NCBI RefSeq assembly: GCF_037042905.1
Contig: NC_087251.1
Span: forward strand, 28,956,001 to 29,020,000
DNA length: 64,000 nt
Origin: Lytechinus pictus
Lineage: Eukaryota
Reading direction: 5' to 3'
Shown: positions 3,808 to 64,000 of the stretch, one piece after another
Numbering within the stretch: position 1 is the first letter of the stretch
Layout of the letters: the number at the start of each line of letters is the position of its first letter
Position numbers and translations under genes: made by a program
Notes under the pieces: model-generated
The model's database searches: none
Told to the model about the DNA's origin: nothing
The model's input: only the letters and a program-made list of their open reading frames with translations

Positions 3808-6800
3808 ATGGCAGACATCAGTATGTCAGCTCAGAGAAAACGAAGAGCTCAACGCATGGCAAATCGGCCTCGACGACTAGCCCAAGGACCAGTGTCGGAT
3901 CACGGTGATGAGATCCTTCAAGCCATTGAGTTAGTCAAAGCTAAGCAAGAAGCTGAAGCTTACCCTGGTGGTGATTTCCTTGAGGCGAAGGACCAGGAAA
4001 CCCACACTCCTGAAAAATCGACCTCTATCTTAAGGTAGGACTTTTTTAGGGGGGGGGTGTGTTACACCCACAAATGTAATAATCGCCCACAAATGTAATA
4101 ACGCCCATAAATGTAATAACACTTTACCCACAAATGTAATAACGCCCACAAATGTAATAACACTTTACCCACAAATGTAATAATTTCACCCACAAATGTA
4201 ATAATGCACTTTACCCACAAATGTAATAATTTTGGATCGCCCACAAATGTAATAATGACTTTACCCACAAATGTAATAAATTTGAAGGGATTTTTGGCGA
4301 ATCCGTTCTCAACTAAAATCCTATAGTAATGCGTTCATATACCCATGGACCTATTGTAATAGGTCCATGATATAGCACAAAAGGGCAGTCTTTTTTCCAG
4401 ACCCGGTTAATTCGAAAATTATTATAAAAGTCCAAAGTCTTTTATCCAGACCCAGTTGTTTCAAAAATTATAATTTAAGTCCAAAGTCTTTTTCCAGACC
4501 CAGTTGTTTCAACAATTATAATATAAGTCCAAAGTCTTTTTCCAGACCCAGTTGTTTCAAAAATTATAATATAAGTCCAAAGTCTTTTTTCCAGACCCGG
4601 TTGTTTAAAAAAAAATAATACAAGTCCAAAGTCTTTTTTCCAGACCTGGTTGTTTAAAAAATAATAATACAAGTCCAAAGTCTTTTCTCCAGACCTCGTT
4701 ATTTAAAAAATGATAATACAAGTCCAAAGTCTTTTTTCAAGACCCGGTTGTTTCCAAAATTATAATATAAGTCCAAAGTCTTTTTTCCAGACCCAGTTCT
4801 TTAAAAAATTATAATATAAGTCCAAAGTCTTTTTTCCAGACCCAGTTGTTTCAAAAATTACAATATAAGTCCAAAGTATTTTTTCCAGACCCGGTCGTTT
4901 TAATAATTATAATATAAGTCCAAACTAAGATACGATAATGATATTCCAGTAGAATGGAAATGAGATTCGAGCTTAGTCTTTTCTCCAGACCCAGTTAATT
5001 AAAACTGGTGGAATTAATGTGTTTGTTGTTGTGTTAACTTATACGGCACATATTGTGAATATATATGCTAAGAGTAAATTGAGAATCAAGCAAAGTCTTT
5101 TCTCCAGACCCGTTAACTAAAAACTAAAACCATATAGTAATGCGTTCATATAGCACAAAGTGCAAAGTTTTTTTTCCAGACCTGCTTAATTCAAAAATGA
5201 TAATATAAGTCAAAGTCTTTTTTCCAGACCCGGTTGTTAAAAAAATTATAATATAAGTCCAAACGAAGATACGATAATGATATTCCAGTGGAATAAAATG
5301 TTGTTGTTTTAGCTCATACGGCACGTATCATTCAGCGGTGAATATTTGCGCAAATAAAAATAAGAATCGAGCTAAGTCTTTTCTCCAGACCCAGTTAATT
5401 AAAACTGGTGGAATAAATGTCTTTGTTGTTGTTTTAACTTATACGGCACCTATTGTGAATATATGCGCTAAGAGTAAATTGAGAATCAAGCGTAGTCTTT
5501 TCTCCAGACCCGGTTACTAAAAACTAAAAACTAAAACCCTTTACCCCACAAATGCAATAATTTCACCCATGAATGTAATAATGCATTTTACCCACATATG
5601 TAATAATTTTGATCGCCCACAAATGTAATAATGACTTTATTCACAAATGTTATAAATTTGAAGAGATTTTTGGCGATTCTGTTCTAAACTAAAACCCTAT
5701 AGTAATGCATATAGCGCAAAGTCTCAGTCTTTTTTCTCCAGACCCGGTTATATAAAACATTTAAACAATCTTCCATATAAAGATCCCAAAATTAATTCTT
5801 CTTAATGTTGAATAACATAGAAGTTTAGCGTAGTCTTTCCTCCAAACCCAAATATTTCAAATAGCAAATAAAAAATAATAAATAATAATAAAAATAAAAA
5901 AAGACCCCACGATGTTATCAATGTTGAACAAGATGTAAATATAACAAATTCTTTCCTCCAGACACAGTTATAAAAAAAATCATTCAAAAATAAAACAACA
6001 ACAACCAAAAACAGACCCGCAATCTTTTCAACATTGAATAGCGTATGTGTGTGTGTATTTGAGTTTTGTCAGACGAGTATCAATCAGATATGATTATTCA
6101 TGTCTGGGACCAACCTTTAACGTCACCATCCGAAAGACGTGACCAAGGCTCGAACCTCGAACCTCTGCATCAATTTGTATCTTCCCCACATAGCTTGGAT
6201 TACTGGCGCATGCCACAACGCCTAGTTAGCATCGAAATATGGTGAAGTCTTTGTTCCAGCCGCGGTTATTTCAAAATAGCATATCATAAAGAACAATATT
6301 AACAAAGACCCAATTATCTCATTGATGCTGAATAACCTGAAAATATAGCGTAGTCTTTCTTCAAGACCCAGTTATTTTAAAATAACAAATCATAGAAAAG
6401 ATATATAATAATAATAAAACAAAGGCCCCACAGTCTTATTGATGTTGAATAACGGGGGGGGGGGTTCTTATTTTTATTTGGCAACCAGTCAAATTTGACT
6501 ATTTTTGCCATCATAAATATTATATTATTAACGTTTGTTTTCTTTGAAGAAATAAAAAATACATGAGTAAAGTAAAATTCAAATATTTATTTATTTTCCT
6601 TTCTTTTTTTCTTCTTTTCTATGTCCTTTTTTATAGGATACCTACTAGGATTTATAGTCGAGTAGGTGTGTCTCTCAATTTAAAATCAGGGCTTTTACTG
6701 AAAATATGTTATATGGACCTACTAAGTATGCAAGGAATACCTAGGATGGAGATGACAGAGAAAGAAATTAGGAAAATCACAGCTCCAATCCTAAACCCGT

Positions 6801-9800
6801 ACGTATGGGGATACGTCTGTCCCGTTGATGTGAACATCAACGTCAGTGAAGTCTCGACCTTTCCCGGAGACAAGACGCCTTTAAATCCTAACAAGGAAAT
6901 ATAGCGTAGTCTTTCCTCCAGACCCACTTATTTCAAAATTACATATAATTTTTTAAAGAGTCAACAAGAAACAAAGACCCCCACTATCTTATTAATGTAA
7001 AAAAATAACATGGAAATATAGTGTAGTCTTTCATCCAGACCCAGATCTTTCAAATAACAAATGATGAATAATGATAATAAATTAATAATAATTATTAAAA
7101 GAACAAAAACCCACGATCCTATTCATGTTGAATAACATGGAAATATAGCGTGGTCTTTTCTCCAGACCCAGTTATAAAAAACACAGCAACAACAAAACAA
7201 AGGCCCTGCAATCTTATCAACATTGAATAGCATGGAAATATGGTGTAGTCTTTGCTCCAGACCCAGTTATTTCAAAATAGGAAAATATAAGAAACAATAA
7301 AAACAAACAGTATCAGCAAAGACCCCACAATATCACTGATGTAGAATAACGTTGTTGTTGTTGTTGTTATCTTGGATTATAAGGCGCGTATCATATGAAT
7401 AGTTACGCCTATGATTAATTTGTTGTCTTTGTGGTATGTGTTATCACATGGTTTTTATAGTTTGAAGATGTTGGGGTCTAAGTTTTAAGATTAATGTTTC
7501 CCTTAATTTGTATTTTTAAGAGAACTGGGTGTGGGGTATAGACAACACTCAAAACCCAAGCATTTTAACTGGGTTTAATTTTGAAGATTGGTCTTAGCCT
7601 TGATTTTTTTAAAATATTTGTTTATCTTTTAAATAACCGGGTCTAGACGAAAGACTAAGCATAATACTCGTGTTATTCCACAGGAATAAGAATATGACAA
7701 AGTTTTATGTTTTTAAGATTGTTGACATTATTTTTTTAAATGACTGTGTTTGAAATAAAGACAACGATCTAAACATGTGCTTTTCTACATGGTCTCAATT
7801 TGGAGGATTGTTGGTTCTTAGATTCGTTGTTGGGGGTTGGGTTTATTGCTTTTTTATTCTTGAAATAACTGTGTCTGGAGGAAAGTCTACAATCGATCTT
7901 CGTGTTACCCACAGTAATTCGATTATTGGGTATTCGTTTTGGAATATTTGTAAAAACTATTTTATTTTTTTCAAATAATAACCAAGTCTGGAGAAAAGAT
8001 GTTTGATTTACCCATGCATTATTACAATGTTTTGTAGGGGTCTTAGTATTAAAAAAAAAAAAAAAACTGGGTGTGGGGTAAAGACATATTTTTTTATTGG
8101 GTGTAACTATTGAAGATTGGTCTTAGATTTGAAGTTTTTTTAAATTCATTTTTTAAATAACCGGGTCTAGTGGAAAGAGTACGTTTTAAAACTCGTGTTA
8201 TTCCACAAGAATGAGAATATGATAGGGTCTTACGTTAGAAATATTTTTTGGTGATTTTTTACTGATTAGGTCTGGAATAAAGACAACGCTCTTAACCTCT
8301 TTTTAAAACAGGTTCTTAGGTTCAGGGACCCTGGAACGGTTTTCAAAGTGGGGGGGGGGGGCTGAGCCAAAAGTTGGGGGGCTGACCATGCTAAACATCA
8401 CAATATTATGGTCATTTTTACGTTTTTGTACACGGTTTTGGAAAAAAGTGGGGGGGGGGGGGGCTGAAGCCCCCCCAGCCCCCCCCCCGGTTCCGCGGCC
8501 CCTGAGGTTGAAGGATTGCTTGGTCTTAGATTTTTAGTTTTTTATTATTACTATTTGCGTTATTTGGAAAAAAATAACTGGGTCTGGCTGAAAGACTACG
8601 CTTTATGTCCTTGTTATCCTGCATTAATAAGATAATGGGGTCTTTATACTGTTTTTGTTGTTGTATTGTTATTTATAATTTTGGAATAACAGGGTTTGGA
8701 GAAGAGACTAAGCTCGATTTTCATTTTTATTCCACTGGAATATCATTATGGTATCTTAGTTTGGACTTATATTTTATTTTTTTAAATAACCGGGTCTGGA
8801 AAAAAGACTTTGAACTTATATTATAATTTTTGAAACAACCGGGTCTGGAAAAAAGACTTTGGACTTATATTATAATTTTTGAAACAACCGGGTCTGGAAA
8901 AAAGGCCTTGGACTTATATATTTTTTTTAATCAACCGGGTCTGAAAAAAGACTTTGACTTATATTATGATTTTTGAATTAACCAGGTCTGAAAAAAAGAC
9001 TTTGCACTTTTGTGCTATATAAATGCATTACTATAGGGTTTTAGTTTTTAGTTTTAAGTAACCGGGTCTGGAGGAGACTACGCTTGGTTCTGAATTTACT
9101 CTTAGCGCATATATTCACAATACGCGCCATATAACTTGAAACAACAACAAAGACATTTAGTCCACCAGCTTTAATTAAGTGGGTCTGGAAAAAAGACTAA
9201 GCTTGATTCTCATTTTCATTCCACTGGAATATCATTATCGTATCTTAGTTTGGGTTTGGACTTATATTATGATTTTTGAAATAACCGGGTCTGGAAAAAA
9301 CTATGGACTTATATTATAATTTTTTAAACAATTGGGTCTGGAAAAAAGACTTTGGACTTATGTTATATTTTTTTAATAACCGGGTCTGGAAAAAAGACTG
9401 CACTTTTGTGCTAAATGAACGCATTACTACAGGGTTTTAGTTTTTAATTTTAAGTAACTGGGTCTGGAGAAAAGACTACGCTTGATTCTCAATTTACTCT
9501 TAGCGCATATATTCACAATACGCGCCGTATAAGTTAAAACAACAACAAGACATTAATTCCACAAGTTTTAATCACCTGGGTCTGGAGCAAAGACTAAGCT
9601 TGATTCTCATTTTTATTCCACTGGAATATCATTATCGTATCTTAGTTTGGACTTATATTATAATTTTCTAAATAACCGGGTCTGGAAAAAAAGACTTTGG
9701 AATTATATTATAATTTTTGAAATAACCTGGTCTGGAAAAAAAGACTTTGGACGTATTTCATATTTTTTTAACAACCGGGTCTGGAAAAAAGACTTTGGAC

Positions 9801-11825
9801 TTATATTATAATTTTCAAATTAAACGGGTCTGGAAAAAAGACTTTGCACTTTTGTGCTATATCATGGACCTATTACAATAGGTCCATGGCTATATAAACG
9901 CATTACCATAGGATCTTAGTTTAGAACGGATTCGCCAAAAATCCCACCAAATTTATTACATTTGTGGGTAAAGTCATTATTACATTTGTGGGCGATCCAA
10001 AATTATTACATTTGTGGGTAAAGTGCATTATTACATTTGTGGGTGAAAGTATTACATTTGTGGGTAAAGTGTTATTACATTTGTGGGCGTTATTACATTT
10101 GTGGGTAAAGTGTTATTACATTTGTTGGCGTTATTACATTTGTGGGCGTTATTACATTAGTGGGTGCAACAGGGTGTAGCTTCTAAAATTGCATTCACTT
10201 TGAATGTTGCCTATTTGACGAATCGATGTTTCATTGAAAAGTCAGTTACTAAATACTTTATAAAATCTCCACGGATATAGCTATTCACAGCCTTCATTCT
10301 GCGATATATAAGAGCTTAGTTTTCGGGGGTAATAACTATGCATAATGTATTTTGTTCTTACCTTGTAGTCACTGTGACAGCAAGCCGACAACGCAGATAC
10401 CTGTCCACGAGAACAAGAGTGTTGACGAAGAGGTCATCCAAATGCTGCAAACCAGCGTCACATGTCAAACTCTCAAACTCGATGACCTCTCGACCTTTGA
10501 CATGGAATGGACTGTAAAGGTAATGCCGATCAAAATCATCTTTAATACATGCACAATATCTCAAATATGACACTGATTTAGATCGGAAAGACAAGTTAAA
10601 ATAGATAATGATAATGTTGTATTAATTTTATTTTTACTTAAGATTTGAACCCTAAATGTAAACACAAAACATTGACACACACTTCAATCGATTAATACGA
10701 ATTACCCTTTCTATATAGTTGGATTGAAGGACATTTTTTCATTCATTTGGCAGAGCCTGGAAACGCTCGTGGAGATTGGGCGGGGCAGCTACGGTCGCGT
10801 CCTTCTAGCACGTCATCGTTCCACAGGCGTCCCTCTTGCGGTCAAAGAACCGTCTTGGTCAGACGATTTTGCCTCGCCCGGTGAAATGGTTGAGGAACTC
10901 AAGGCAACAAGGACCAGAGCTACAAAGGAGGCACTGATCCAACAGTTGTTGTCAGGAAGTCCCTACTTTCCAAAGTTATGGGGTACGCTAGACCTCGGAA
11001 ACGAACTCTGCCAGGCCGTCGAGTTCATCGGATGCAAGAAGACAGGCACTGGCTACCCTCTCCACGCACCACCACGTCTATCAGTCAGCAACGTTGTCAA
11101 GATCGCAGAGGATATCGTCAAGGGAATGAAGGAGTTCCATGATCACGGACTTCTCCATAATGACTTGAAGAATGATAACGTGCTGTTAGAAAAACGCGGC
11201 AAACGATACAACGCCGTCATCATCGATTTCGGCATGGCGAGCACAATGACGGCACCAGCAAAAATGGTTGGGGTCACCAAAGAACTGAAAATGGCATATG
11301 TGCACGGAGGGGAGGCGGACTACATAGCACCTGAGGTTGTCCTGGATGAACAGCCGACATCAGTTGCTTCAGACGTGTTTTCGATCGGCCGTATCTTTTC
11401 GGATATGGGAGAGATATTCGAAGGTAATTATCGAATCTTTATCACCATCTCATATATTGAATGGAAAACTCGCTGTTCACAAAATAATACATGTCTAAAA
11501 AAAAATCTGTTCATGAAATATTTAAACCGCAACCATTTTCTTGATTCTCCTTTTGATTTTCACCCATTCATTGAATATCATTTTGTTCAATGCATAATTA
11601 TCTCCGTTTCCTTTGCTTCTCTTTATGTTTCTCCTAACTTCAGATCTCCACTCTCCCGTGGTTCGAACACTGACCAAGATAGGATCTAAGTGCATGGCAA
11701 ATGATCCTGATCACCGCCCAAGCCTTGATACCATCCAAACTCAAATCGACAAACTCCAACGGCCAAGTAGATGGAGGCGTGTCAAGCGATGGTTCGCAAG
11801 AAAACTACATCTACGCAGAAAGTAG
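3808..11825 (+). CDS. Ser/Thr protein kinase, copy 1: join(3808..4034,10369..10519,10754..11423,11644..11825); intron 1 expanded by a foldback insertion
   Basis: Exons and GT-AG sites are intact as in the other copies. Intron 1 is 6334 bp rather than ~219 bp. Whether this copy is expressed is unknown. Confidence 0.75.
4066..4280 (+). repeat. Outer-arm minisatellite with CCCACAAATGTAATAA core (left arm)
   Basis: About 9 copies of the core with short variable linkers. The reverse complement lies at ~9953-10165. Confidence 0.92.
4387..4925 (+). repeat. Inner-arm ~53-bp tandem repeat (CCAGACCC.GTTGTTT..AAAATTATAATATAAGTCCAAAGTCTTTTT)
   Basis: About 10 consecutive copies, with degenerate derivatives continuing to ~7270. 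Reverse-complement copies (GGGTCTGG) occupy ~7520-9850. Confidence 0.9.
6043..6226 (-). mobile_element. ~184-bp SINE: 7SL/Alu-like head, Pol III A and B boxes, Deu-like core motif, (CA)n tail
   Basis: The minus strand reads ACTAGGCGTTGTGGCATGCGCCAGTAATCCAAGCTATGTGGGG...GGTTCGAGCC...CGTCTTTCGGATGGTGACGTTAAA...ACACACACACATAC. It is flanked by TAGC repeats (6039-6042, 6227-6230). The paralogous empty site at ~7220-7245 lacks it. Confidence 0.75.
6454..6888. other. ~435-bp insertion of unrelated sequence inside the foldback arm
   Basis: It interrupts the arm motif gttgaataac|atggaaatatagcg and has TAAC on both sides (6450-6453, 6889-6892). It begins with a G-run and has no evident TIR. Confidence 0.6.
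8323..8504 (-). mobile_element. MITE copy B (same family as 41-225, inverted), nested in the foldback
   Basis: Reverse-complement match to 41-225 with termini CAGGGACC...GGCCCCTG. AGGTT is duplicated on both sides. Confidence 0.85.
9953..10165 (-). repeat. Outer-arm minisatellite (right arm), TTATTACATTTGTGGG core
   Basis: Reverse complement of 4066-4280. The spurious ORFs 4062..4268(-) and 9964..10179(+) give nearly the same translation. Confidence 0.92.
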
Positions 11826-55534: not shown

Positions 55535-55602
55535 GACCTATAATTATCCTTCACTGAATGTCTCAACATCGATATTCAAGCAGAAAGATCACTCCCTAGC
55601 AA
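55535..55602 (+). other. 68-bp templated insertion at the array/satellite junction
   Basis: Exact copy of a unit segment (54701-54768 in the nearest unit, GACCTATAATTATCC...CCCTAGCAA), joined through shared GACC. Confidence 0.9.
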
Positions 55603-58600
55603 ATTGGGCAAAATTGGCCAAAATTGAGCAAAATAATATTTGTTTAATATTTCCCCCGAAACACCCCAAATCAGCCGTCTTCGCTCCCTGGGATGTTTTA
55701 GCATCCTAACCGATTATTACAGCGAGAATCAACAGGATCCAGGGAGTTTGAATTTTCGACCCCCTTGCCCCACCTGCGGCATGGAAAATTTGGCAAAATT
55801 GGCCAAAATTGAGCAAAATAACATTTGTTAAATATTTCCCCCGAAAACCCCCCAAATCAGCCGTCTTCGCTCCCTGGGATGTTTTAGCATCCTAACCGAT
55901 TATTACAGCGAGAATCAACAGGATCCAGGGAGTTTGAATTTTCGACCCCCTCGCCCCACCCGCGACATGGAAAATTGGGCAAAATTGGCCAAAATTGAGC
56001 AAAATAATATTTGTTCAATATTTCCCCCGAAACCCCCCCAAATCAGCCGTCTTCGCTCCCTGGGATGTTTTAGCATCCTAACCGATTATTACAGCGAGAA
56101 TCAAGAGGATCCAGGGAGTTTGAATTTTCGACCCCCTCGCCCCATCCGCGACATGGAAAATTGGGCAAAATTGGCCAAATAGAGCAAAATAATATTTGTT
56201 CAATATTTCCCCCGAAACCCCCCCAAATCAGCCGTCTTCGCTCCCTGGGATGTTTTAGCATCCTAACCGATTATTACAGCGAGAATCAAGAGGATCCAGG
56301 GAGTTTGAATTTTCGACCCCCTCGCCCCACCCGCGACATGGAAAATTGGGCAAAATTGGCCAAATAGAGCAAAATAATATTTGTTCAATATTTCCCCCGA
56401 AACCCCCCCAAATCAGCCGTCTTCGCTCCTTGGGATGTTTTAGCATCCTAACCGATTATTACAGCTAGAATCAAGAGGATCCAGGGAGTTTGAATTTTCG
56501 ACCCCCTCGCTCCACCTGCGACATGGAAAATTTGGCAAAATTTGCCAAAATTGAGCAAAATAATATTTGTTCAGTATTTCCCCCGAAACTCCCCCAAATC
56601 AGCCGTCTTTGCTCCCTGGAATGTTTTAGTATCCTAACCGATTATTACAGCGAGAATCAACAGGATCCAGGGGGTTTGAATTTTCGACCCCCTCGCCCAA
56701 CCCGCGACATGGAAAATTGGGCAAAATTGGCCAAAATTGAGCAAAATAATATTTGTTTAATATTTCCCCTGAAACCCCCCCAAATCAGCCGTCTTCGCTC
56801 CCTGGGATGTTTTAGCATCCTAACCGATTATTACAGCGAGAATCAAGAGAATCAAGAGGATCCAGGGAGTTTGAATTTTCGACCCCCTCGCCCCACCCGC
56901 GACATGGAAAATTTGGCAAAATTGGCCAAAATTGAGCAAAATAATATTTGTTCAATATTTCCCCCGAAACCCCCCCAAATCAGCCGTCTTCGCTCCCTGG
57001 GATGTTTTAGCATCCTAACCGATTATTACAGCGAGAATCAAGAGGATCCAGGGAGTTTGAATTTTCGACCCCATTGCCCCACCCGCGACATGGAAAATTG
57101 GGCAAAATTGAGCAAAATAACATTTGTTAAATATTTCCCCCGAAAACCCCCCAAATCAGCCGTCTTCGCTCCCTGGGATGTTTTAGCATCCTAACCGATT
57201 ATTACAGCGAGAATAAACTGGATCCAGGGAGTTTGAATTTTCGACCCCCTCGCCCCACCCGCGACATGGAAAATTGGGCAAAATTGGCCAAAATTGAGCA
57301 AAATAATATTTGTTCAATATTTCCCCCGAAACCCCCCCAAATCAGCCGTCTTCGCTCCCTGGAATGTTTTAGCATCCTTACCGATTATTACAGCGAGAAT
57401 CCAGAGGATCCAGAGAGTTTGAATTTTCGACCCCTTCGCCCCACCCACGACATGGAAAATTGGGCAAAATTGGGCAAAATTGAGCAAAATAATATTTGTT
57501 CAATATTTCCCCCGAAACCCCCTCAAATCAGCCGTCTTCGCTCCCTGGGATGTTTTAGCATCCTAACCGATTATTACAGCGAGAATCAAGAGAATCAAGA
57601 GGATCCAGGGAGTTTGAATTTTCGACCCCCTCGCCCCACCCGCGACATGGAAAATTGGGCAAAATTGGCCAAAATTGAGCAAAATAATATTTGTTCAATA
57701 TTTCCCCCGAAACCCCCCCAAATCAGCCGTCTTCGCTCCCTTGGATGTTTTAGCATCCTAACCGATTATTACAGCGAGAATCAAGAGGATCCAGGGAGTT
57801 TGAATTTTCGACCCCCTCGCCCCACCCGCGACATGGAAAATTGGGCAAAATTTGCCAAAATTGAGCAAAATAATATTTGTTCAATATTTCCCCCGAAACC
57901 CCCCGAAATCAGCCGTCTTCGCTCCCTGGAATGTTTTAGTATCCTAACCGATTATTACAGCGAGAATCAACAGGATCCAGGGGGTTTGAATTTTCGACCC
58001 CCTCGCCCAACCCGCGACATGGAAAATTGGGCAAAATTGGCCAAAATTGAGCAAAATAATATTTGTTTAATATTTCCCCTGAAACCCCCCCAAATCAGCC
58101 GTCTTCGCTCCCTGGGATGTTTTAGCATCCTAACCGATTATTACAGCGAGAATCAAGAGAATCAAGAGGATCCAGGGAGTTTGAATTTTCGACCCCCTCG
58201 CCCCACCCGCGACATGGAAAATTTGGCAAAATTGGCCAAAATTGAGCAAAATAATATTTGTTCAATATTTCCCCCGAAACCCCCCCAAATCAGCCGTCTT
58301 CGCTCCCTGGGATGTTTTAGCATCCTAACCGATTATTACAGCGAGAATCAAGAGGATCCAGGGAGTTTGAATTTTCGACCCCATTGCCCCACCCGCGACA
58401 TGGAAAATTGGGCAAAATTGAGCAAAATAACATTTGTTAAATATTTCCCCCGAAAACCCCCCAAATCAGCCGTCTTCGCTCCCTGGGATGTTTTAGCATC
58501 CTAACCGATTATTACAGCGAGAATAAACAGGATCCAGGGAGTTTGAATTTTCGACCCCCTCGCCCCACCCGCGACATGGAAAATTGGGCAAAATTGGCCA

Positions 58601-61600
58601 AAATTGAGCAAAATAATATTTGTTCAATATTTCCCCCAAAACCCCCTCAAATCAGCCGTCTTCGCTCCCTGGGATGTTTTAGCATCCTAACCGATTATTA
58701 CAGCGAGAATCAAGAGGATCCAGGGAGTTTGAATTTTCGACCCCCTCGCCCCACCCGCGACATGGAAAATTGGGCAAAATTGGCCAAATAGAGCAAAATA
58801 ATATTTGTTCAATATTTCCCCCGAAACCCCCCCAAATCAGCCGTCTTCGCTCCCTGGGATGTTTTAGCATCCTAACCGATTATTATAGCGAGAATCAAGA
58901 GGTTCCAGGGAGTTTGAATTTTCGACCCCCTCGCCCCACCCGCGACATGGAAAATTGGGCAAAATTGGCGAAAATTGAGCAAAATAATATTTGTTCAATA
59001 TTTCCCCCGAAACCCCCCCAAATCAGCCGTCTTCGCTCCCTGGAATGTTTTAGCATCCTTACCGATTATTACAGCGAGAATCCAGAGGATCCAGAGAGTT
59101 TGAATTTTCGACCCCTTCGCCCCACCCACGACATGGAAAATTGGGCAAAATTGGGCAAAATTGAGCAAAATAATATTTGTTCAATATTTCCCCCGAAACC
59201 CCCTCAAATCAGCCGTCTTCGCTCCCTGGGATGTTTTAGCATCCTAACCGATTATTACAGCGAGAATCAAGAGAATCAAGAGGATCCAGGGAGTTTGAAT
59301 TTTCGACCCCCTCGCCCCACCCGCGACATGGAAAATTGGGCAAAATTGGCCAAAATTGAGCAAAATAATATTTGTTCAATATTTCCCCCGAAACCCCCCC
59401 AAATCAGCCGTCTTCGCTCCCTTGGATGTTTTAGCATCCTAACCGATTATTACAGCGAGAATCAAGAGGATCCAGGGAGTTTGAATTTTCGACCCCCTCG
59501 CCCCACCCGCGACATGGAAAATTGGGCAAAATTTGCCAAAATTGAGCAAAATAATATTTGTTCAATATTTCCCCCGAAACCCCCCGAAATCAGCCGTCTT
59601 CGCTCCCTGGAATGTTTTAGCATCCTAACCGATTATTACATCGAGAATCAAGAGGATCCAGGGAGTTTGAATTTTCGACCCCCTCACCCCACCCACGACA
59701 TGGAAAATTGGGCAAAATTGGCCAAATAGAGCAAAATAATATTTGTTCAATATTTCCCCCGAAACCCCCCCAAATCAGCCGTCTTCGCTCCCTGGGATGT
59801 TTTAGCATCCTAACCGATTATTATAGCGAGAATCAAGAGGTTCCAGGGAGTTTGAATTTTCGACCCCCTCGCCCCACCCGCGACATGGAAAATTGGGCAA
59901 AATTGGCCAAAATTGAGCAAAATAATATTTGTTCAATATTTCCCCCGAAACCCCCCCAAATCAGCCGTCTTCGCTCCCTGGAATGTTTTAGCATCCTAAC
60001 CGATTATTACATCGAGAATCAAGAGGATCCAGGGAGTTTGAATTTTCGACCCCCTCACCCCACCCACGACATGGAAAATTGGACAAAATTGGCCAAAATT
60101 GAGCAAAATAATATTTGTTCAATATTTCCCCCGAAACCCCCCCAAATCAGCCGTCTTCACTCCCTGGGATGTTTTAGCATCCTAACCGATTATTACAGCG
60201 AGAATCATGAGGATCCAGGGAGTTTGAATTTTTGACCCCCTCGCCCCACCCGCGACATGGAAAATTGGGCAAAATTGGCCAAAATTGAGCAAAATAATAT
60301 TTGTTCAATATTTCCCCCGAAACCCCCCCAAATCAGCCGTCTTTGCTCCCTGGAATGTTTTAGCATCCTTACCGATTATTACAGCGAGAATCCAGAGGAT
60401 CCAGAGAGTTTGAATTTTCGACCCCTTCGCCCCACCCACGACATGGAAAATTGGGCAAAATTGGGCAAAATTGAGCAAAATAATATTTGTTCAATATTTC
60501 CCCCGAAACCCCCTCAAATCAGCCGTCTTCGCTCCCTGGGATGTTTTAGCATCCTAACCGATTATTACAGCGAGAATCAAGAGAATCAAGAGGATCCAGG
60601 GAGTTTGAATTTTCGACCCCCTCGCCCCACCCGCGACATGGAAAATTGGGCAAATTTGGCCAAAATTGAGCAAAATAATATTTGTTCAATATTTCCCCCG
60701 AAACCCCCCCAAATCAGCCGTCTTCGCTCCCTGGGATGTTTTAGCATCCTAACCGATTATTACAGCGAGAATCAAGAGAATCAAGAGGATCCAGGGAGTT
60801 TGAATTTTCGACCCCCTCGCCCCACCCGCGACATGGAAAATTTGGCAAAATTGGGCAAAATTGGCCAAAATTGAGCAAAATAATATTTGTTCAATATTCC
60901 CCCCGAAACCCCCCCAAATCAGCCGTCTTCGCTCCCTGGGATGTTTTAGCATCCTAACCGATTATTACAGCGAGAATCAAGAGGATCCAGGGAGTTTGAA
61001 TTTTCGACCCCATTGCCCCACCCGCGACATGGAAAACTGGGCAAAATTGGGCAAAATTGAGCAAAATAATATTTGTTTAATATTTCCCCCGAAACCCCCC
61101 CAAATCAGCCGTCTTCGCTCCCTGGGATGTTTTAGCATCCTAACCGATTATTACAGCAAGAATCAAGAGGATCCAGGGAGTTTGAATTTTCGACCCCATT
61201 GCCCCACCCGCGACATGGAAAATTGGGCAAAATTGAGCAAAATAACATTTGTTAAATATTTCCCCCGAAAACCCCCCAAATCAGCCGTCTTCGCTCCCTG
61301 GGATGTTTTAGCATCCTAACCGATTATTACAGCGAGAATAAACAGGATCCAGGGAGTTTGAATTTTCGACCCCCTCGCCCCACCCGCGACATGGAAAATT
61401 GGGCAAAATTGGCCAAAATTGAGCAAAATAATATTTGTTCAATATTTCCCCCAAAACCCCCTCAAATCAGCCGTCTTCGCTCCCTGGGATGTTTTAGCAT
61501 CCTAACCGATTATTACAGCGAGAATCAAGAGGATCCAGGGAGTTTGAATTTTCGACCCCCTCGCCCCACCCGCGACATGGAAAATTGGGCAAAATTGGCC

Positions 61601-64000
61601 AAATAGAGCAAAATAATATTTGTTCAATATTTCCCCCGAAACCCCCCCAAATCAGCCGTCTTCGCTCCCTGGGATGTTTTAGCATCCTAACCGATTATTA
61701 TAGCGAGAATCAAGAGGTTCCAGGGAGTTTGAATTTTCGACCCCCTCGCCCCACCCGCGACATGGAAAATTGGGCAAAATTGGCCAAAATTGAGCAAAAT
61801 AATATTTGTTCAATATTTCCCCCGAAACCCCCCCAAATCAGCCGTCTTCGCTCCCTGGAATGTTTTAGCATCCTTACCGATTATTACAGCGAGAATCCAG
61901 AGGATCCAGAGAGTTTGAATTTTCGACCCCTTCGCCCCACCCACGACATGGAAAATTGGGCAAAATTGGGCAAAATTGAGCAAAATAATATTTGTTCAAT
62001 ATTTCCCCCGAAACCCCCTCAAATCAGCCGTCTTCGCTCCCTGGGATGTTTTAGCATCCTAACCGATTATTACAGCGAGAATCAAGAGAATCAAGAGGAT
62101 CCAGGGAGTTTGAATTTTCGACCCCCTCGCCCCACCCGCGACATGGAAAATTGGGCAAAATTGGCCAAAATTGAGCAAAATAATATTTGTTCAATATTTC
62201 CCCCGAAACCCCCCCAAATCAGCCGTCTTCGCTCCCTTGGATGTTTTAGCATCCTAACCGATTATTACAGCGAGAATCAAGAGGATCCAGGGAGTTTGAA
62301 TTTTCGACCCCCTCGCCCCACCCGCGACATGGAAAATTGGGCAAAATTTGCCAAAATTGAGCAAAATAATATTTGTTCAATATTTCCCCCGAAACCCCCC
62401 GAAATCAGCCGTCTTCGCTCCCTGGAATGTTTTAGCATCCTAACCGATTATTACATCGAGAATCAAGAGGATCCAGGGAGTTTGAATTTTCGACCCCCTC
62501 ACCCCACCCACGACATGGAAAATTGGGCAAAATTGGCCAAATAGAGCAAAATAATATTTGTTCAATATTTCCCCCGAAACCCCCCCAAATCAGCCGTCTT
62601 CGCTCCCTGGGATGTTTTAGCATCCTAACCGATTATTATAGCGAGAATCAAGAGGTTCCAGGGAGTTTGAATTTTCGACCCCCTCGCCCCACCCGCGACA
62701 TGGAAAATTGGGCAAAATTGGCCAAAATTGAGCAAAATAATATTTGTTCAATATTTCCCCCGAAACCCCCCCAAATCAGCCGTCTTCGCTCCCTGGAATG
62801 TTTTAGCATCCTAACCGATTATTACATCGAGAATCAAGAGGATCCAGGGAGTTTGAATTTTCGACCCCCTCACCCCACCCACGACATGGAAAATTGGACA
62901 AAATTGGCCAAAATTGAGCAAAATAATATTTGTTCAATATTTCCCCCGAAACCCCCCCAAATCAGCCGTCTTCACTCCCTGGGATGTTTTAGCATCCTAA
63001 CCGATTATTACAGCGAGAATCATGAGGATCCAGGGAGTTTGAATTTTTGACCCCCTCGCCCCACCCGCGACATGGAAAATTGGGCAAAATTGGCCAAAAT
63101 TGAGCAAAATAATATTTGTTCAATATTTCCCCCGAAACCCCCCCAAATCAGCCGTCTTTGCTCCCTGGAATGTTTTAGCATCCTTACCGATTATTACAGC
63201 GAGAATCCAGAGGATCCAGAGAGTTTGAATTTTCGACCCCTTCGCCCCACCCACGACATGGAAAATTGGGCAAAATTGGGCAAAATTGAGCAAAATAATA
63301 TTTGTTCAATATTTCCCCCGAAACCCCCTCAAATCAGCCGTCTTCGCTCCCTGGGATGTTTTAGCATCCTAACCGATTATTACAGCGAGAATCAAGAGAA
63401 TCAAGAGGATCCAGGGAGTTTGAATTTTCGACCCCCTCGCCCCACCCGCGACATGGAAAATTGGGCAAATTTGGCCAAAATTGAGCAAAATAATATTTGT
63501 TCAATATTTCCCCCGAAACCCCCCCAAATCAGCCGTCTTCGCTCCCTGGGATGTTTTAGCATCCTAACCGATTATTACAGCGAGAATCAAGAGAATCAAG
63601 AGGATCCAGGGAGTTTGAATTTTCGACCCCCTCGCCCCACCCGCGACATGGAAAATTTGGCAAAATTGGGCAAAATTGGCCAAAATTGAGCAAAATAATA
63701 TTTGTTCAATATTCCCCCCGAAACCCCCCCAAATCAGCCGTCTTCGCTCCCTGGGATGTTTTAGCATCCTAACCGATTATTACAGCGAGAATCAAGAGGA
63801 TCCAGGGAGTTTGAATTTTCGACCCCATTGCCCCACCCGCGACATGGAAAACTGGGCAAAATTGGGCAAAATTGAGCAAAATAATATTTGTTTAATATTT
63901 CCCCCGAAACCCCCCCAAATCAGCCGTCTTCGCTCCCTGGGATGTTTTAGCATCCTAACCGATTATTACAGCGAGAATCAACAGGATCCAAGGAGTTTGA
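55603..64000 (+). repeat. 186-bp satellite DNA array (~45 monomers, runs off the window) with higher-order repeats
   Basis: The monomer period is 186 (55934 to 56120), and most monomers contain GGATCC. Length variants come from a 9-bp GAGAATCAA duplication, gain or loss of a 10-bp AAAATTGGNC subrepeat, and a 1-bp deletion. Variant patterns recur at 1310 and 2815 bp. Confidence 0.98.

Follow-up and report, generated by a model that had tools for sequence, protein, structure and literature searches.

A sea-urchin SINE with a short 5′ part like SRP (7SL) RNA, a tRNA-type B box and a body shared with families under tRNA-like heads

From 2446 to 55538 the window, i.e. the whole stretch of 64 000 nucleotides of Lytechinus pictus DNA that was analysed, is occupied by units of 4.0 or 4.3 kb arrayed in tandem, which are >99% alike and differ in length by ∼330 bp; the array carries a Ser/Thr kinase exon 11 times. 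For one of the kinase frames (10727-11422), 20 relatives reach E 1e-20 or better, the four named ones all being from sea urchins; the frame is 85% identical over 230 residues to Strongylocentrotus purpuratus XP_030830369.1, a member of the cluster of the best match. This one gene would place the host probably among sea urchins near Strongylocentrotus. A 186-bp satellite (about 45 copies, 93% match) extends from 55601 to 64000 and continues past the end of the window. One unit of the kinase array is split by a foldback-type element of 6110 bp (4061-10170), whose long inverted arms are built of 18-49-bp repeats and which is flanked by a near-perfect 7-bp duplication. This element contains the SINE that is the subject of this report.

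The SINE copy, the only one in the window, lies on the minus strand at 6043-6226 (184 nt) and is bordered by a 4-bp target duplication, TAGC; its immediate surroundings are a degenerate AT-rich satellite, itself within the 6.1-kb inverted-repeat element. A sequence-only reading had proposed here a SINE in a non-mammalian genome, with a head starting at 6226, A and B boxes, a Deu-like motif, a (CA)n tail and TAGC flanks; all these features are present and the proposal of a non-mammalian SINE is borne out. The two copies of the duplication read TAGC on the plus strand, at 6227-6230 next to the 5′ end of the SINE and at 6039-6042 next to its 3′ end. An empty site exists in a paralogous satellite unit (7212-7260, plus strand), with a single TAGC at 7228-7231, from which it follows that the retroposon is a true insertion, whose ends are exact and which duplicated 4 bp of its target. 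When 6043-6230 was deleted by script and the flanks were aligned to the window, they matched the satellite unit 7110-7307 across the junction (76% match), and the same empty form is found in one contig of the sequencing run X1, which skips from 6042 to 6246.

Some words of the stretch are shared by 20 of the 24 listed sequencing runs (six organisms, 12 studies), the largest share being 0.22 and no RNA run among those listed having a substantial one. Four of the 24 were aligned to the stretch: X1 (organism A), X3 (B), X12 (D) and the RNA run X23 (A). This placed 3841, 1733 and 4838 contigs for X1, X3 and X12, respectively, and 1886 RNA reads for X23; run depth and contig counts on the SINE are not to be taken as copy number, and the zero depth at 5820-6017 reflects the skipping of repeats there and is no evidence. 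Depth climbs sharply at 6040-6061, and in all four runs loose ends with unlike flanks cluster at 6046-6050. To the right of 6238, depth is 0 up to 6325 in B and D; in A the satellite found there is itself repeated. The supposition that the SINE is multi-copy is supported: the contigs of organisms A, B and D together number in the thousands, and at the tail they pass into many unlike flanks; the SINE is a short, interspersed, non-tandem repeat with a target duplication, as SINEs are characterized in SINEBase. Single contigs join head, spacer, body and tail, over 6070-6219 in A and 6078-6226 in B. At 10 or more of its 184 sites, the copy in the window has a letter other than the majority one of X1. 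The family probably belongs to sea urchins.

Upstream of the tail, 37 nt (6107-6143, minus strand) resemble the 5′ start of the Deu/Nin domain as given for AmnSINE1 by Kojima 2020 (Fig. S4): 28 of the first 36 letters of the Deu row are matched, with one gap, in a count made by eye. The remainder of the domain is absent, and the length falls short of the 70-330 bp that define a DeuSINE. Thus, of the DeuSINE core claimed earlier, the likeness at the 5′ start of the domain stands, but what is present is a remnant of 37 nt. It is followed by a stem-loop (6070-6106, minus strand), a candidate LINE-recognition signal delimited from the folds of two related loci, L001 and L002, and from the letters that the family carries in the runs (family letters). 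It is a two-part hairpin, with a folding z of -3.1 in L001, -1.5 in L002 and -0.2 in the worn window copy; the family letters at 6076, 6099 and 6101 restore its outer stem, and the differences between L001 and L002 within it are confined to the loop and bulges. After the stem-loop come an A-rich stretch and a (CA)n tail (6043-6069, minus strand; delimited from the sequence and the pile-up of loose ends), and there is no poly(A) tail. The CR1 and L2 enzymes recognise a 3′ stem-loop of such a type. Pattern scans of bacterial and archaeal genomes and of viral contigs revealed no LINE with the tail of the SINE.

L001 and L002 are the two loci brought by a scan of metagenomes with a motif of the body. 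Pattern scans of bacterial and archaeal genomes gave 0 matches, and four scans of viral contigs gave 0, 0, 1 and 0; the sole viral match, L003, was rejected as a relative, being a chance 19-mer with unrelated flanks. Body and tail of the SINE show 77 and 79 identities over 88 nt to L001 and L002, respectively (0/1000 shuffles as good in each case), and the Deu remnant is near-invariant in both. The first part of the head (6180-6226) has no likeness to their upstream parts, 2315 and 1036 of 5000 shuffles being as good. L001 (436-592) and L002 (165-372) represent two more SINE families that carry this body and tail, each with a tRNA-like head of its own. The L001 head has a B box and that of L002 both a B box and an A box; neither ARAGORN nor Rfam finds a tRNA in them (L001 has a weak mascRNA match, E 1.9), and we call them tRNA-like as a reading of their boxes and arms alone.

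The segment that joins the body to the 5′ end of the SINE (6144-6179, minus strand) resembles the 3′ half of such a tRNA-like head, i.e. a spacer and a T-arm-like part, judging by the alignment to L002 and by loose ends in organism D. The spacer (6157-6179) aligns to L002 226-250 with identity in 16 of 25 columns (1/5000 shuffles as good; the anchor was set by eye) and has no likeness to L001 (2830/5000 shuffles as good). The likeness to L002 starts at 6179, the base directly after the closing helix described below. The B box, GTTCGAGCC (6147-6155, minus strand), sits in the part common to the tRNA-like heads of L001, L002 and organism D. The B box named in the sequence-only reading is present, but its region is not derived from SRP RNA. 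Another B-like unit precedes the B box by 7 nt, forming a tandem 7-mer that is missing in 276 of 969 RNA reads. The head is not tRNA-derived over its full length, as SINE2 elements are defined: there is no tRNA match and only its 3′ half is tRNA-like. The candidate Pol III A box (6205-6222, minus strand) was located by comparison with a printed 7SL box A motif, that of Kojima 2020, with which 6213-6222 agrees at 8 of 10 positions; the earlier placement was 6205-6215, TGGCATGCGCC, which is 60 nt from the B box. The RNA reads of X23 fall in equal numbers on both strands, 82% of them run on into unlike sequence, and there are no defined RNA start sites on the SINE in this run; since this is read-through without starts, the run is uninformative on Pol III transcripts.

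The first 47 nt of the SINE (6180-6226, minus strand) appear to derive from SRP (7SL) RNA, as suggested by the alignment to Rfam RF00017, the family letters and a count of base pairs. They resemble its 5′ Alu domain, with the closing helix, helices 3 and 4, the GUAA turn, the loop-loop pairing and the A-box region. The match to Metazoa_SRP (RF00017) starts at model position 1, which falls on 6226, the first base of the SINE. It is weak: 13 bits for a gathering score of 70, with E 0.091 in a search with 121 nt and E 0.2 with 63 nt; the model is not among the matches of a 1.3-kb Rfam search, and in the window Rfam gives no match at gathering level. ARAGORN finds no tRNA across the window and no Rfam tRNA model matches the head; the Infernal/Rfam comparison proposed along with the sequence-only reading has thus come out in favour of SRP RNA as a better fit than tRNA for the 5′ end. 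Taking the Rfam model as the reference, in place of the human 7SL sequence quoted in the sequence-only reading, we counted by eye on the alignment 27 identities over model positions 1-36, with one inserted base, and 31 over positions 1-44, i.e. 70% of the 5′ domain. By a binomial estimate, at least 27/36 would be reached by chance with a probability of 1.5e-7 to 1.2e-5 at the 5′ end of a SINE, and of 0.002 to 0.15 anywhere in the window; the exact 5′-end position therefore carries much of the weight for the 7SL likeness. A 7SL-like 5′ end had been claimed, and it stands as a match from position 1 of RF00017, but the likeness is limited to 47 nt: it stops at 6180, the end of the 5′ Alu domain.

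The family letters bring the head nearer to the model. The letter at 6223 agrees with it in all four runs (76-100% of depth), that at 6204 at 53-98% across the four, and that at 6211 at 65-84% in three runs and 36% in X3; with these three swapped in, identity rises to 30 of 36 model positions. A fourth family letter, at 6180 (97-100%, all four runs), pairs with base 1 and closes pair 1-47, so that the closing helix 1-47, 2-46, 3-45 is whole. Two pairs of this helix are changed on both sides relative to the model, provided that the window copy has the family letter at bases 1 and 3, and the differing letters may be those of the host's own 7SL. Of 17 pairs (14 from the model and three loop-loop pairs of the SRP structure), 13 hold in the window copy, and 211 of the 127,908 positions compared in the window score no worse. 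With family letters two broken pairs are restored and 15 hold; model pairs 10-17 and 11-16 are broken even then. The loop-loop complementarity noted earlier is indeed kept, but in the window copy it consists of two Watson-Crick pairs and one G-U. The folding energy of the head is ordinary (z -0.74). A 2-nt loop deletion is present in 131 RNA reads and 26 X1 contigs, and a variant of helix 3, at 6204-6205, in ∼40% of RNA reads and <1% of X1 depth.

The runs also differ in how far the head accompanies the body. Depth drops over the head ∼6-fold in A and ∼120-fold in B, of which loose ends account for a part only; those at 6187-6190 in A and B continue into SRP-like sequence. In organism D the drop from body to head is ∼1900-fold, from 2.4 million at 6106-6127 to 1,285 at 6194-6215, and loose ends at 6142-6157 run into a T-arm-like head resembling that of L002. 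At least two distinct loose-end consensus sequences are found in X12 at 6142-6157, where the head joins. This suggests several head variants on one body in organism D. Four to five contigs of D cover the SRP-like head; they may stem from rare copies with an SRP-like head or from the organism's own 7SL genes.

The element is a true insertion, and it belongs to a multi-copy family of modular build that occurs in several organisms; a 7SL origin of its head is strongly indicated by the likeness described above. We consider it quite probable that the family was born by a head swap, in which a 47-nt 7SL 5′ domain was placed on an older tRNA-type element. The ancestor would have been a SINE with a tRNA-type head, the 37-nt Deu remnant, the 3′ stem-loop and a simple-repeat tail. 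Its head would have lost the 5′ half and gained bases 1-47 of 7SL, the cut falling where the closing helix ends, and the joining may have occurred by template switch or recombination. The order of these events is a tentative reading. The spacer likeness covers 25 columns, in L002 only. The resulting promoter would be a hybrid, Pol III using the A box of the 7SL piece and the B box of the tRNA piece. The transcript would then be copied, via target-primed reverse transcription, by a LINE recognising the 3′ stem-loop. The partner is likelier to be of CR1 or L2 type than L1 or RTE, given a 4-bp duplication (one case), the lack of poly(A) and the partners of other S. purpuratus SINEs: in the Ohshima 2013 table, these are CR1 or L2, and all the SINEs are classed as tRNA-derived. 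Finally, the 5′ domain may still fold and bind SRP9/14, which would carry the RNA to ribosomes; we lean slightly towards such binding.

The 7SL-derived head could instead serve as a mere A-box donor, SRP9/14 binding being lost or irrelevant, since a LINE that reads a stem-loop would need no ribosome docking. This agrees with the loop and helix variants among copies, with the two broken model pairs and with the whole 3′ stem-loop, which suggests stringent LINE recognition; there is also a precedent, as 5S replaced tRNA heads as promoter donor in Deu-SINEs (PMC4758252). However, an A box alone would need ∼22 nt and the retained piece stops exactly at the closing helix, and the family letters keep pairs 1-47, 2-46 and 3-45, helix 4 and the loop-loop pairs, although this could also be put down, with no selection involved, to the family being young. 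We regard such a passive role as possible, if somewhat doubtful. That the SINE derives from tRNA throughout, with a 5′ half that came by drift to resemble SRP RNA by chance, appears improbable: the Rfam score is weak, B box and spacer are of tRNA type and the S. purpuratus SINEs of the Ohshima table are classed as tRNA-derived without exception, but 27/36 from base 1, or 30 with family letters, has a binomial probability in the range of 1e-7 to 1e-5, no tRNA matches, and the head bears no likeness to the 5′ halves found in the tRNA-like heads of the sister families.

A question of another kind, compatible with a head swap, is whether the family is already catalogued, e.g. as a Repbase SINE2-n_SP entry or in Dfam, its 7SL origin perhaps unnoticed. 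There is a considerable chance of this, though we would rather expect the contrary: the family is abundant, its lineage lies close to a well-studied genome for which Repbase has several SINE entries, and a 47-nt head misses the 60-nt overlap required by SINEBase. On the other hand, SINE2-n_SP entries 1 and 2 are classed in the literature as Meta, entry 3 as Deu with a Nin domain and SP-4 to SP-6 as CORE, and the 7SL SINEs named in a 2026 paper (PMC13023118) are those of supraprimates, hagfish and shrew mole only; SINE2-7_SP was not mentioned in the literature searched. Contamination by human Alu, or a chimeric 7SL retrocopy standing by itself, would be favoured by the presence of a single copy in the window and by a weak match to the Alu-derived mir-1268. 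This explanation is refuted, unless the runs were mislabelled, by the host satellite setting with its empty site and by the contigs of A and B in which head, spacer, body and tail are joined, and we give it hardly any weight.

The proposal that the SINE is Alu-like has to be qualified: the 5′ end is 7SL-like, but the build is not that of Alu, as there is no 3′ Alu segment and the B box is of tRNA type. According to PMC7245038 and PMC13023118, Alu, B1 and Urop have, like the urchin SINE, the 5′ Alu domain at the extreme 5′ end of a Pol III-type retroposon; they differ in being internally deleted 7SL with both Alu segments, in their A-rich tails and in their use of L1. Members of the group formed by these elements and the hagfish SINE1-1_EBu have 5′ and 3′ Alu segments with the S domain deleted, whereas here the likeness ends at 6180, and where Alu, B1 and Urop have an A-rich tail and an L1 partner, the urchin SINE has (CA)n after a stem-loop. 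According to Kojima 2020 (PMC7245038), a 3′ Alu-domain segment is present in both the Euarchontoglires SINE1 and the hagfish element. The SINE can be placed in SINE1 in the broad sense (a 7SL-derived 5′ end) by the RF00017 match, which has a model as reference and, though weak alone, is strengthened by its position and by the family letters; for SINEBase, which asks for at least 60% identity over at least 60 nt to tRNA, 5S or 7SL, it has 70% over 47 nt only.

SINE1-1_EBu, as described by Kojima 2020 (PMC7245038), shares the principle of a 7SL 5′ end placed on what was the body and tail of an older SINE with a tRNA head, the simple-repeat tail and the independence from Alu. It has retained 96 nt from the 5′ end of 7SL, with both boxes, and the 3′ Alu segment, compared with 47 nt in the urchin SINE; it has RTE-derived parts and ∼17-bp duplications, as the RTE-driven hagfish SINEs do, in contrast with the B box of a tRNA-type parent and the 4-bp duplication found here. 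The Tu SINEs of tree shrews, likened by description (PMC7245038, PMC13023118), also mix 7SL and tRNA units but are di- or trimeric and descend from the Euarchontoglires ancestor. DeuSINEs, including SINE2-3_SP and the 5S-headed subgroup, have the first 36 Deu letters in common with the urchin SINE, and the 5S-headed ones are an earlier example of a small RNA being fused as a new head in front of a tRNA head, 5S in their case and 7SL here (PMC4824008, PMC4758252); members described by Nishihara 2016 keep 70-330 bp of the Deu/Nin domain, which is absent beyond 37 nt in the urchin SINE. It is very likely that the origin of the SINE is independent of Alu.

The closest in extent is an engineered construct, the minimal 5′ Alu domain SA46/AY46 of Moldovan 2025 (PMC12199147), which equally comprises 46-47 nt up to the closing helix. 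According to that paper, a 46-nt 5′ Alu domain is the minimum for SRP9/14 binding and retrotransposition and has no B box, and the authors argue that the bare 46-nt piece failed in evolution for want of one; SA46 relies on an outside promoter, a poly(A) tail and L1 ORF2p, whereas the urchin SINE has a tRNA-type B box. A natural domain of the 46-nt type supplied with a B box would answer a point left open by that study. Independent 7SL-derived SINEs are called ‘extremely rare’ in the 2026 paper (PMC13023118), which knows them from supraprimates, hagfish and shrew mole with a near-identical internal deletion, and the literature searched, with subscription papers and Repbase Reports outside its range, held no report of one in an echinoderm or other invertebrate. 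To these the family would add a case from an invertebrate, built differently. The fullest reading, i.e. the first invertebrate 7SL SINE, a natural ‘SA46’ with a borrowed B box that is present in several sea urchins, has a CR1/L2-type partner and is kept through SRP9/14-mediated ribosome docking, is put forward tentatively; we would give it a little less than an even chance. If true, such docking would aid even a reverse transcriptase that reads a stem-loop.

Since the sister families combine the same body and tail with tRNA-type heads, comparison within the lineage offers a natural control on the question whether a SINE gains in success from a head that binds SRP9/14, and whether it does so outside the L1 system too. 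The two sisters are themselves not uniform at the 3′ end: in L002 a terminal 4-nt repeat replaces (CA)n, and the tail loop contains a 9-nt duplication.
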